Assembly: GCA_046331705.1 (NCBI GenBank)
Contig: JAXLQJ010000002.1
Location: forward strand, 204,370-268,369
Length of the DNA stretch: 64,000 nucleotides
Reading direction: 5' to 3'
Origin: a bacterium
GTDB taxonomy: Bacteria > JADJOY01
Numbering within the stretch: position 1 is the stretch's first letter; every line of letters begins with the position of its first letter. A model generated the notes under the pieces. That model saw only the letters and a program-made list of their open reading frames with translations. It ran no database searches and was not told the origin of the DNA. Positions 2,741-64,000 of this stretch are shown one piece after another. A program made the translations under genes and the position numbers.

Positions 2741-2983
2741 GCCGCACGGGCGTCACGGCAGCCACGGCCGCTCGGAAAATTCTTCGCGAAAATGCTTTGA
2801 TTACGGAGATCCATCAGATAATTTCCTGCTGTTCGTTCCGCTCCCCTAGGAGCAGGACACTTCGAACAACGCACACGATTCGTCTCCATCGCTCACCGTT
2901 TTTGGTGTGAGATGGGACGGTCAACTAGGTCGAGCTTTCGGACGTCTCCCAGGAGTGCCGGAAGTCGAATCGAGGTAGCACCA

Positions 2984-3187
2984 ATGGCAGTTGGTACCGT
3001 GAAGTGGTTCAACGATGCGAAGGGTTTTGGCTTCATCACCCCGGCGGATGGCTCGAAGGACGTGTTCGTCCATCACAGCGCCATCACGATGGAGGGGTTC
3101 CGCACCCTGTCCGAGGGACAGCGCGTCGAGTACGAGGTGACGCAAGGTGCGAAGGGGCCTGCAGCGCAGAACGTGCGGCCCGTCTGA
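2984..3187 (+). CDS. cspA: Cold-shock protein
   Basis: [15 protein letters not shown] (RNP1), DVFVHHSAI (RNP2), KGPAAQNV; 67 aa; GAGGT RBS. Confidence 0.96.
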
Positions 3188-60286: not shown

Positions 60287-60509
60287 CCTCACACCTCTCG
60301 GATCCTCGGGTCGGTCCATCTCTTTCCAGATTGCCACGTTCCCTCACGCGGCGACACACGCGCGACGAGGCTGACGACACGCGAGGGCGGAATCGGTGAG
60401 CCGGTCGCGAAGACTCTGGCGATGGGCACCGTGCCGTCTCGGATCGCTCCCCCGGCTGGTCTGCTGCGCGACCCGCGTGCCGCTGCGGTCGGAGCCATCG
60501 GTCCGCGAC

Positions 60510-60601
60510 GACGCCGCGCGCCGCTCAGCAGCGGCCACGGACTACCACGCGATCAACCCTGCGCGTCCCGGGGTGCCGTCTGCTGCAGCGCGTAGTTAAG
60601 G
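60510..60601 (-). mobile_element. Terminal attC site with degenerate R' box
   Basis: Minus strand CCTTAAC (contains toxin stop)-TACG-CGCTGCAGCAG...CTGCTGAGCG; GTTRRRY not present. Confidence 0.65.
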
Positions 60602-60931
60602 CCCGATGATTTCATTGAGGCCCTCAAGCACGAGACTGAGCTCCTCGGCGCTTGCTTCACCAAGGCGGCGGCCTATTCGCTCAGTCGACAACGTACGAAT
60701 CTGGCTGATCTTCACCCAAGAACGCTTTGGTAACGGTGCGTGGAGTTCCAAGGTGAGTGGATACGGTGCCCGCTGAGGCTGGGAGGTAAGGGCGAGGGCT
60801 ATTACCGTTCCAGAGCGATCGTTGAAGACATCATGGCTCAGGATCAGCACGGGACGTTCACCCGCCTGCTCCCGACCCCGTACGGGATCGAGTGACGCCC
60901 AGCGAATCTCGCCGCGACGGATTCGCGCCAA
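60596..60931 (-). CDS. mazF: Type II toxin, PemK/MazF family endoribonuclease
   Basis: RRGEIRWASLDPVRGREQAGERPVLILS, SQIRTLSTERI. Confidence 0.92.
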   Translation of the reverse strand: MARIRRGEIRWASLDPVRGREQAGERPVLILSHDVFNDRSGTVIALALTSQPQRAPYPLTLELHAPLPKRSWVKISQIRTLSTERIGRRLGEASAEELSLVLEGLNEIIGP

Positions 60932-61174
60932 TCAGTACTCCGGCCAGTCTGCGGCGTCGGCCGCGAGACCGGATTCCGCTAGGGCGCGCTCTTCCGCTAC
61001 GTCGAGAAGCCGGCAGGCATCCGCAAGGCGCGTTCGCCGAAGCCGCCTCAACGCCGCGGCGACGGCAGCCTCGATCGCGTGACTCCGGTTCGGGAACCGT
61101 CCGGCCTCGACCAGCGCGTCGAGCTCACCGAGCAAGTCCGACTCCACCGTGACGGCGACCTTAGTCTTCGGCAT
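60932..61174 (-). CDS. Ribbon-helix-helix antitoxin
   Basis: KTKVAVTV...ELDALV...FPNRSHAIE; GGAGG RBS; abuts toxin start. Confidence 0.9.
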   Translation of the reverse strand: MPKTKVAVTVESDLLGELDALVEAGRFPNRSHAIEAAVAAALRRLRRTRLADACRLLDVAEERALAESGLAADAADWPEY

Positions 61175-61187
61175 GGCTCCAACCTCC

Positions 61188-61208
61188 GGTATGACCATAC
61201 ATCATACC
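61188..61208. promoter_or_regulatory. TA operator palindrome GGTATGA-N7-TCATACC
   Basis: Perfect 7-bp inverted repeat just upstream of the antitoxin RBS, overlapping TATGAT/TATGGT -10-like hexamers. Confidence 0.8.
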
Positions 61209-61230
61209 GCAGCCAACTGCCAAATACTGG

Positions 61231-61257
61231 CCCTAACACCGCGCTCACCTGCGGCGC
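61231..61257 (-). mobile_element. Right half of an attC site (L'-R'), interrupted by IS110
   Basis: Minus strand CAGGTGAGCGCGGT-GTTAGGG immediately precedes the TA cassette; the matching left half is absent. Confidence 0.75.
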
Positions 61258-61292
61258 TGGTGCTGTCGAAAACCCCAACCGGAGGAAGCCCA

Positions 61293-62205
61293 ATGCGATT
61301 CTACACCGGCCAACACGACCACTACTGCGGCACCGATCTGCACGCGCGATCGATGTACCTCTGTGTCCTCGATCGCGCTGGCGAGGTCCGACTTCATCGG
61401 GACTTCCCGGCCAGCCCGGAGTCCTTCCTTCGCGCCGTCGCGCCCTTCCGCGAAGGGCTCGTCGTCGGAGCCGAGTGCATGTTCACCTGGTACTGGCTCG
61501 CCGACCGCTGCGCCGCCGAGAACATCCCGTTCGTGCTCGGCCACGCCCTCTACATGAAGGCGATCCACGGCGGGAAGAGCAAGAACGATCGCATCGACAG
61601 CCTCGAGACCGCCACGCTGCTGCGCGGCGGCGCCATAGCGCATGCCTACGTCTACCCGCCGAAGATGAGGGCGACGCGGGCCCTCCTTCGTCGACGGACG
61701 CGGATGGTACCCCGGCGCGCCGAGCTGATCGCCCACGTTCAGAACACCCACCACCCGTACAACCTCGCGGCGCCCGGGCCGCGGCTCGCGTACACCGGCA
61801 ATCACGAAGGCGTCCCGGAGCACTTCCGTGATCCGACGGTGCGCCGCAGCGTCGAGCTCGACCTCGAGCTGGCGCGGATCCTCGGTGAGCGCATTACCGA
61901 CCTCGAGCTTTACCTGGTGCGGCAAGCGAAGGAGCACGACCCGAACGCCTTCCATCTGCTGCGCTCGATTCCTGGCGTCGGCAAGATTCTCGCGCTCACG
62001 ATCCTCTACGAGGTCCACACGATCGAGCGCTTCCCGCGCGTGCAGGATTTCGCGTCGTATTGCCGGCTGGTGAAATGCAGTCGTGAGTCCGCGGGCAAGA
62101 TCCACGGCACCGGCGGCGCCAAGATCGGGAACGTTCACCTCAAGTGGGCCTACTCGGAAGCCGCAACGCTCTTCCTGCACGGCAACCCCGAAGGCCAGCG
62201 GCTAC
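61293..62205 (+). mobile_element. IS110-family transposase, apparently C-terminally truncated (ORF runs on to 62345 in unrelated sequence)
   Basis: GGAGG RBS; YCGTDLH, AECMFTWYWL, KNDRID (DEDD RuvC-like), SIPGVG, RESAG catalytic Ser region; resemblance ends after GNPEGQRL. Confidence 0.9.
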
Positions 62206-62293
62206 GGGGGGCCTTGATCGGGGTAGTGATCGTGGACTCCGGCTCATTGTTTGAATGGAGGAATGCCCGGGTTGATTCCTTTACACGAGGCAG

Positions 62294-62444
62294 GTCGAAC
62301 GACCTGCCGTTCAGCAGCCAACGCCAAGGTCGCGTACGAGCGTAACACGGCCGCGGGCCGCGGGTGCAGCCCGCGGCGTCGCGGCATGAGCCCAACTCCG
62401 AGCGGAAGCGCGTGGCGCTCGACTGCTGCAACGGCCGGTTGGGC
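62294..62444 (-). mobile_element. attC site (151 bp)
   Basis: Minus strand GCCCAAC-CGGC-CGTTGCAGC...GCTGAACG-GCAGGTC-GTTCGAC; extra base in L''; 7 bp after cassette stop. Confidence 0.8.
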
Positions 62445-63790: not shown

Positions 63791-63807
63791 TCCCTTCGTT
63801 CAGCCCG

Positions 63808-63814
63808 GGCTAAC
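63808..63814 (-). mobile_element. Isolated attC R' core (GTTAGCC) abutting a second IS110 end
   Basis: Exact GTTRRRY-like position 17 bp before the cassette start; rest of the attC not present in window. Confidence 0.55.
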
Positions 63815-63912
63815 CCAGATGGAATGAGAAGGCTGACCTCCCGATCACGAGATGTCGTAAACGATTCTCAAGGTTGGATCAACGGGCTCGAAGCCCAAAC
63901 AGGAGGTCAGCC

Positions 63913-64000
63913 ATGAGCGATAGTGCCACGAAGTCCTTCGGATCGGAAGCGCAGGCCGCCTCGCTTCCGCCCCTCACCGCCGGCCTCGACGTCGGCGACC
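63913..64000 (+). mobile_element. Probable second IS110-family transposase, N-terminus only
   Basis: AGGAGG RBS; MSDSATKSFGSEAQAASLPPLTAGLDVGD ends in the G-L-D-x-G-D first catalytic-Asp motif; only 29 codons visible. Confidence 0.6.

Follow-up and report, generated by a model that had tools for sequence, protein, structure and literature searches.

The window analysed here is a stretch of 64,000 nucleotides (contig C2, positions 204370-268369) that ends inside an IS110-family transposase gene, of which 88 nt lie within the window. Directly upstream of the gene stands a structured segment with two complementary outer arms, the second of which carries the Shine-Dalgarno sequence. Positions past the window's end are given on locus L001. 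The features are as follows.

63807-63816, + strand: left half of the interrupted target (GGGCTAACCC), on the R''-core side of an attC-like site, recognised from empty copies in the genome
63817-63818, + strand: AG, likely the core dinucleotide common to element and target, marking the left boundary to within 2 nt, from the comparison of occupied and empty sites
63817-63834, + strand: left-end block AGATGGAATGAGAAGGCT, whose 16-nt motif is present with 0-3 mismatches in 58 distinct leader stretches of relatives
63824-63834, + strand: subterminal inverted repeat ATGAGAAGGCT, with its inverted copy AGCCTTCTCAT at L001 3235-3245, beyond the window
63831-63841, + strand: 5' arm of helix P1 (GGCTGACCTCC), overlapping the last 4 nt of the inverted repeat; 11 of 11 pairs with compensatory changes
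63849-63869, + strand: hairpin P2, GAGA-U-GUCG-UAAA-CGAU-UCUC, with a 4-bp base, a bulged U, a 4-bp top and a UAAA loop
63884-63896, + strand: hairpin P3, GGGCU-CGA-AGCCC, from RNA folding and covariation
63902-63912, + strand: 3' arm of P1 (GGAGGTCAGCC) with the Shine-Dalgarno sequence, from sequence, RNA folding and covariation
63913-64000, + strand: start of the transposase gene (379 codons in all, L001 1714-2853)
L001 ~2950-3030 (window 65149-65229): probable guide (seek/bridge) RNA, ~1.2 kb beyond the window end

The element and its integron surroundings

By its domains and its ends, the element is an IS110-family insertion sequence of ~1.63 kb with the IS1111 layout. The transposase contains DEDD_Tnp_IS110 (PF01548, E 1.4e-21) and Transposase_20 (PF02371, E 2.3e-20), and its C-terminal domain reads GLCPRRKQSG in translation, which fits the IS1111-type motif GL-P----S(t)G; GL-P----SG characterises the IS1111 type (PMC11187229). 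The inverted repeat ATGAGAAGGCT/AGCCTTCTCAT spans 11 bp with 0 mismatches, and subterminal inverted repeats of 7-17 bp are given for the IS1111 group (PMC11208160, in part). Scattered matches with 2 mismatches, 10 in 35 distinct regions, are the only further copies of the repeat found in the 3' region. The left end measures ~96 nt from tip to ATG, and 382 nt separate the stop codon from the right-end repeat; among 40 relatives with frames of at least 340 codons, the 3' non-coding region is 227-485 nt long. Thousands of relatives of the transposase exist, the nearest 79% and 65% identical and the following ones at most 58%. Compared with classic IS1111-group members it is distant: an IS4321-family protein shares 25.7% identity over 61% of its length, and the best of the IS110-family plasmid proteins reaches 32.9%.

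Two further copies with 92-94% DNA identity and broken frames lie on contigs C30 (L002) and C54 (L003). Both are decayed by frameshifts or stops, leaving the gene intact only in the window copy; the C30 copy has also lost part of the Shine-Dalgarno arm through a 2-nt deletion and one nucleotide of P2. Aligning the three copies places the left boundary at ~63812-63817 and reveals a long right end. An RNA-library contig from a relative loses similarity exactly before the AG (L001 1618), which fits this left boundary. Element DNA is present at 90% or more of sampled words in 14 sludge or wastewater metagenome runs, among the 13 studies listed. RNA-library contigs from 4 runs hold only pieces of the element at a depth of 5 or less, with neither ends nor strand, and contigs of this kind do not show transcription.

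The occupied site reads GGGCTAACCC-AG-ATGG...CATGGA-AG-CTCAGC-AGCGGCC, and empty sites read ..YAAC-CC(GA)-AG-CTCA(G/C)C-AGCGGCCACGGACT-ACCACG.., with one of them AACCC-AG-CTCACC. The 14 nt after the right end (AGCGGCCCCGGACT) lie outside the element; this motif and its neighbours recur element-free at window 60523-60546 and on contigs C23, C30 and C59. Three integron integrase genes score above the curated cut-off in the genome (contigs C59, C44 and C23), and attC-like repeats lie within 1-3 kb of the integrase genes on C23 and C59. Because the same repeats recur empty and near integrases, the element is placed in an attC-like site, just 3' of an R''-type core, and on this comparison it is an insertion into an integron cassette array. 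The attC core that the earlier note named beside the element is thus borne out by empty attC-like repeats elsewhere in the genome, close to integron integrases. Recombination probably takes place at the AG, by analogy with ISPpu9, which recombines at an AG dinucleotide (PMC12288879, in part). In the genome, the 13-mer inferred for the empty target has 28 matches and its reversed control 25, so it is not enriched.

Attached to this site are several observations on the array. Repeats of attC-like type with GCTCAGCAGCGGCCACGGACTACC occur at window 60505-60600 and again on C23, C30 and C59. Neighbouring cassettes carry genes for a PemK/MazF-RHH pair and for a DUF4262 protein. The pair (window 60596-61198, - strand) comprises a PemK/MazF-like toxin of 111 aa (E 1.5e-29) and a ribbon-helix-helix antitoxin of 88 aa, and lies between an attC-like site and the first IS110-family element, as is typical of toxin-antitoxin systems in cassette arrays. 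A different IS110-family gene at window 61149-62345 (+ strand) has both Pfam domains, an unrelated leader with no match to the leader model described below, and a reading frame that looks altered at its 3' end. Among relatives, the left flanks of L022, L025 and L076 contain repeated GTCATCCTGAGCGAAGCG-type sequence, which points to REP-like targets in Acidobacteriota; REPs are also the targets of ISPpu9 and ISPa11.

Structure and covariation of the leader

In this copy, the 11 nt at 63831-63841 (GGCTGACCTCC) are the perfect reverse complement of 63902-63912 (GGAGGTCAGCC), forming helix P1. The Shine-Dalgarno GGAGG (63902-63906) lies inside the 3' arm and ends 6 nt before the ATG (63913-63915), which the arm directly abuts. 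When 63815-63930 is folded without constraints, all three helices appear, at -42.6 kcal/mol; shuffled sequences average -29.8 kcal/mol (sd 3.6), giving z = -3.56, and 2 of 200 are as stable. The earlier note's description of complementary arms hiding the ribosome-binding site next to the ATG therefore holds to the base, its two inner hairpins are present at 63849-63869 and 63884-63896, and the folding check it proposed recovers the three-helix fold. Its view of GGTTGG (63872-63877) as unpaired does not hold: in the minimum-energy fold, GGUUG pairs with CGAUC (63842-63846) and lengthens the closing helix in this copy, an extension not conserved among relatives. Opening the region from the Shine-Dalgarno to the AUG is computed to cost 14.7-16.1 kcal/mol for transcripts that include the 5' arm. 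For 5' ends at 63836 or later, which lack it, the figure is still 9.2-9.4 kcal/mol, and P1 is thus left with a computed contribution of only ~5-6 kcal/mol.

A contig search with the single protein as query recovered no relative. An alignment-based scan of one-genome-per-species contigs yielded 80 loci at 43-55% identity. Judged by record title, their sources are Acidobacteriota, Chloroflexota, Gemmatimonadota, Actinomycetota, Verrucomicrobiota, Myxococcota, Planctomycetota, Desulfobacterota and Eremiobacterota; in 60 further genomes from the relatives sample, no transposase relative reached E <= 1e-40. Most of the 80 loci have GATGGRATGAGAAGGC ~100 nt upstream of the gene; despite differing sequence, the next 11 nt are in most cases complementary to the final 11 nt up to the start codon. 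Five such arm pairs are GGCCAACCTCC with GGAGGTTGGCC, GGCTGATCTCC with GGAGATCAGCC, GGCCAGTTTCC with GGAAACTGGCC, GGCCACCCTCC with GGAGGGTGGCC, and GGCCGCTCTCC with GGAGAGCGGCC. Across 51 distinct leaders, which contain 24 distinct P1 arm cores, an element's own arms agree at 4.49 of 5 variable positions and arms drawn from different elements at 2.45. Unconstrained folds of 46 of these 51 leaders include at least 8 P1 pairs. When 39 leaders are aligned with plain MAFFT, RNAalifold identifies 6 pairs of P1, each with compensatory changes.

Covariance models extend this comparison. R1, built from 9 leaders and a hand-written structure, matches 68 of the 83 loci searched; every match is on the + strand, immediately 5' of the gene, with its end at the start codon. 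The R1-based alignment (55 distinct rows) has 94.1% of its cells paired, compared with 75.5% in shuffles, 0 of 500 of which reach 94.1%; sliding the partners by 1-3 columns leaves 23-45% paired. Compensatory changes occur at 22 of its 23 base pairs, covering all 11 pairs of P1, all 7 of P2 (helices 2 and 3, with 95.4% and 91.8% of cells paired) and 4 of 5 in P3 (98.8% paired). Being fitted to the model structure, this alignment leans towards it; the arm matching, the RNAalifold result and the unconstrained folds are free of that bias. The pair closing the P3 loop is U-G in 29 and U-A in 15 of the 55 rows and therefore fits the sense strand only. Compared across relatives, the structure lies far outside chance, and the covariation shows these helices to be real and kept by selection acting on the sense RNA strand.

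A second model, R2, rebuilt from the R1 matches, adds 5 loci, so that the leader stands directly upstream of the transposase gene in 70 of the 80 relatives overall. The covariation across homologous left ends that the earlier note had named as a check is thus present, both in the 22 of 23 compensated pairs and in this distribution. Within the window, R2 has a sole match, 63818-63915, scoring 75.1 bits, against 12.2 bits for the antisense strand. An IS4321-family element, three further IS110-family elements from plasmids and two more IS110-family loci of this genome were also searched with R2 and gave no match, and the motif therefore marks this clade and not the whole family.

Among the 10 relatives with no leader match, L032 comes with no sequence upstream, and L052 is truncated on the 5' side. 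Four others (L059, L062, L077 and L084) pass from the inverted repeat directly to the Shine-Dalgarno, with no model match and with open frames of 372-387 codons. These four form an Acidobacteriota sub-lineage in which the Shine-Dalgarno lies within ~15 nt of the subterminal repeat and the leader has been lost. Their long frames and retained ends suggest, indirectly, that the leader may be dispensable for mobility.

Guide-like segments in the 3' non-coding region

The earlier note took the leader for part of a guide RNA and/or a translational repression fold, on the premise that the guide comes from upstream of the recombinase. That premise is true of the IS110 group (PMC11208160, in part), but this element has the IS1111 layout, and in the IS1111 group the guide RNA lies in the 3' non-coding region (PMC11187229 and PMC11208160, both in part). 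The repression half of the proposal stands, with a Shine-Dalgarno helix kept by compensatory change; the guide half falls, as the leader has no complementarity particular to its own target.

For 40 elements, RNA segments were compared with the 12 nt on either side of their own insertion point and with those of unrelated elements. The leader interior matches its own target over 4.15-5.65 nt and other targets over 4.25-5.63 nt, with 0-2 of 40 elements in the 5% tail, in 8 settings that combine left or right target, either strand, and wobble pairs allowed or not. In all 8, the covariation between unpaired leader bases and targets that the earlier note had envisaged is no greater than with other elements' targets. 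The 3' region behaves differently: against the top strand of the right target its matches average 7.12 nt (own) versus 5.42 nt (cross), with 15 of 40 in the 5% tail, and against the bottom strand of the left target 6.25 versus 5.50 nt, with 3 of 40. A wider longest-common-substring test over 35-50-nt flanks gave no signal for the leader; its power is low, with the 3' region itself reaching only 8.30 versus 7.30.

In the window element, GCTGAGCT (L001 2970), antisense to AG+CTCAGC, lies 31 nt 5' of AACCCAGATGG (L001 3001), which equals the left junction in sense. IS1111-type seekRNAs likewise have the top-strand match 5' of the bottom-strand match (PMC11187229). In 16 of the 40 relatives, the 3' region contains the left-target bases followed by AGATGG, and the 70 nt or less upstream hold an antisense match to the right junction (own 7.56 versus cross 5.29 nt), 12 of the 16 starting no more than 6 nt from the element's end. 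A conserved stem, GGYGACUGC...GCAGCRCC, encloses two variable segments around a variable hairpin, and RNAalifold of 13 relatives gives 13 pairs for it, 6 with compensatory change. One variable segment is antisense to the right junction, the other equals the left junction plus AGAUGG, and both track each relative's insertion site. The stability of this fold is not unusual (z = -1.09). Since the own-target complementarity and the conserved enclosing stem lie there, the guide is placed at ~L001 2955-3026 and not in the leader, and the comparison shows guide-like segments in the 3' non-coding region.

The same features agree with the seekRNA/bridge RNA elements of the IS1111 group, ISEc11, ISKpn4 and ISPst6, which also have subterminal inverted repeats, a short left end, and a 3' non-coding region that contains the guide, in which the top-strand match lies 5' of the bottom-strand one; ISKpn4 and ISPst6, as here, target attC (PMC11187229 and PMC11208160, both in part). 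The counterpart of their guide RNA is the 3' segment just described, and the leader is a different RNA. Bridge RNAs of the IS621 type (IS110 group) resemble the leader as structured non-coding RNAs upstream of the recombinase gene and on the same strand; unlike the leader, they have two internal loops that covary with target and donor.

That the leader is nevertheless a guide, or part of one, with GGUUGG and similar bases pairing with the attC flank CYAACC, is highly improbable. By inspection, GGUUGG can pair with CTAACC or TCAACC given one G-T wobble, and AGGUUGGA of the leader finds an 8-nt complement, UCCAACCU, in the 3' region. That match is ordinary, however, as this leader averages 7.10 nt against the 3' regions of other elements, and leaders in general match their own 3' region over 7.25 nt versus 7.15 nt for others in antisense (32 distinct elements) and 7.28 versus 7.15 nt in sense. 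In the predicted fold GGUUGG is paired inside the leader, the leader lacks a pair of internal loops, and four relatives have no leader. As a guide or bridge RNA, the leader is rejected: it fits its own targets no better than those of other elements, and the covarying segments sit in the 3' region.

Transcription and the likely role of the leader

A scan of the integrated element on both strands found no sigma-70-like promoter; the same has been noted for ISEc11 (PMC11187229). At least 5 of the 6 bases of TTGACA are present in 40 of 43 distinct right ends of relatives, and in 33 of those 40 the box stands 17-18 nt from a junction hexamer that arises where the right-end GGA-AG meets the left-end AG-AT. 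In this copy, the right end carries TTGAAA, followed after 17 nt by GAAGAT across the junction. Read as a -10 element, GAAGAT agrees with the consensus at only 3 of its 6 bases (A2, A5, T6) and falls short of the promoter-scan criteria, which makes the start site uncertain. Junction promoters are documented for the IS110/IS1111 family (PMC11187229, in part). If such a promoter is used here, transcription would start near 63826-63829, and the message would therefore begin with P1. From these sequences we infer that the message starts a few nucleotides 5' of P1, from a promoter formed only in the excised circle. As a further observation on the right ends (L001 3210-3250 and the right ends of L009-L088), TTGACA lies 6-7 nt before the right subterminal repeat in nearly all relatives, often preceded by a covarying hairpin such as GGCCG-CCACGT-CGGCC.

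We consider it likely, and hold this with good confidence, that 63817-63915 is an IS1111-layout left end in an attC-like site whose leader sequesters the ribosome-binding site in cis, so that the transposase is made rarely. The first 18 nt would be the conserved end with its 11-bp subterminal inverted repeat, and the next ~82 nt would be the 5' leader of the transposase mRNA. P1 would join the very start of the transcript to the Shine-Dalgarno and to the 6 nt that lead up to the AUG, with P2 and P3 inside. Folding in cis, the leader would keep ribosomes off the transposase message, and the enzyme would be poorly translated even from the excised circle's own transcript. That the fold represses translation is what we infer from its geometry and, by analogy, from experiments on other insertion sequences. 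On the structural model, the leader is most likely a brake on transposase synthesis and not a guide RNA.

The closest of these analogies is ISPpu9 of Pseudomonas putida, also an IS110-family element in which a fold in the tnp 5'-UTR buries the ribosome-binding site; there, mutations that weakened the fold raised a translational fusion 26-fold (PMC8450116, in part). Unlike the present element, ISPpu9 belongs to the IS110 group, lacks subterminal repeats, features a long 5'-UTR together with its own promoter, and produces an antisense RNA (Asr9) and a downstream sRNA (Ssr9), according to the parts of PMC8450116 and PMC12288879 that describe it. Here the leader is ~82 nt long, the layout is of IS1111 type and no antisense partner was found, and the two leaders are likened by description only. 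In IS200 and IS10/Tn10, a stem in cis likewise takes up the Shine-Dalgarno of the transposase mRNA and transposition is kept rare (PMC4513863 and PMC5006887, both in part); these elements differ in having unrelated transposase families and sequences, and simpler single stems.

The leader might instead serve only as insulation against read-through, in the manner of IS10 fold-back inhibition, a reading we regard as unlikely. Only transcripts entering from the neighbouring cassette would then carry both arms and be silenced, and the element's own transcript would start in or after the 5' arm and be translated freely. The 5' arm begins only 14 nt from the element tip, and any transcript from outside therefore carries it; the failure to find an internal promoter in the scan, and the drop in opening cost from ~15 to ~9 kcal/mol on 5' truncation at 63836 or later, point the same way. 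Set against this, the inferred junction -10 lies at 63815-63820 in joined coordinates, with a start at ~63826-63829, which is 5' of the arm, and the conserved P2 and P3 with their compensatory changes are not needed for insulation. Read-through transcripts of IS10 are reportedly silenced by fold-back inhibition.

P2 and P3 are conserved although simple occlusion does not need them, and the leader may therefore do more than clamp the Shine-Dalgarno. They may only hold the P1 arms together, or they may be recognition sites. The latter leads to a regulated switch or binding platform, which we think has a small chance of being right: the recombinase, its ribonucleoprotein or an RNase would read P2, with its bulged U, and P3, with its U-G/U-A-closed triloop, and binding or cleavage would open or lock P1, coupling transposase synthesis to the state of the element. 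Both hairpins are kept in nearly all relatives with compensatory changes; a co-transcribed long RNA has been proposed to be processed, "likely by the transposase" (PMC11187229); and the ISPpu9 fold is opened by an antisense RNA (PMC8450116, in part). The search yielded no partner for the leader, no antisense promoter (with the antisense strand at 12.2 bits) and no element-specific complementarity between leader and 3' region, and P2 and P3 may simply bring the P1 arms together. A doubtful extension makes the leader a second functional RNA module of IS1111-type elements, in which the P2/P3 switch is read by the recombinase or the guide-RNA complex; transposase synthesis would then be confined to the excised circle and would end once sufficient complex was present. 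The 5' tail of the leader, a transcript of the subterminal repeat, could also pair with both element ends and aid recognition of the donor ends. We know of no explanation so far for donor-end recognition in the IS1111-type group.

On the preferred reading, the leader brakes transposase synthesis by a mechanism of known kind, and it is the motif and its cross-phylum spread in IS1111-type elements that appear to be undescribed. Rfam gave 0 matches at E up to 1 for L001-L003 (9673 bases, both strands), and the leader is not described in the literature consulted, including passages of a 2026 preprint on IS110-adjacent non-coding RNAs.

IS110/IS1111 recombinases are under development as RNA-guided genome-writing tools, and to our knowledge published work on them has centred on the guide RNA. 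These results indicate that in a large clade of IS1111-type elements, one that spans phyla, a conserved structured leader hiding the ribosome-binding site is present as well. They redirect the guide search in this element to its 3' end, and add a lineage that targets attC and is only a distant relative of the IS1111-attC elements known so far. The leader may represent a new RNA family, and it is likely to act as a natural limit on recombinase dosage, which would matter when such elements are expressed in other hosts.
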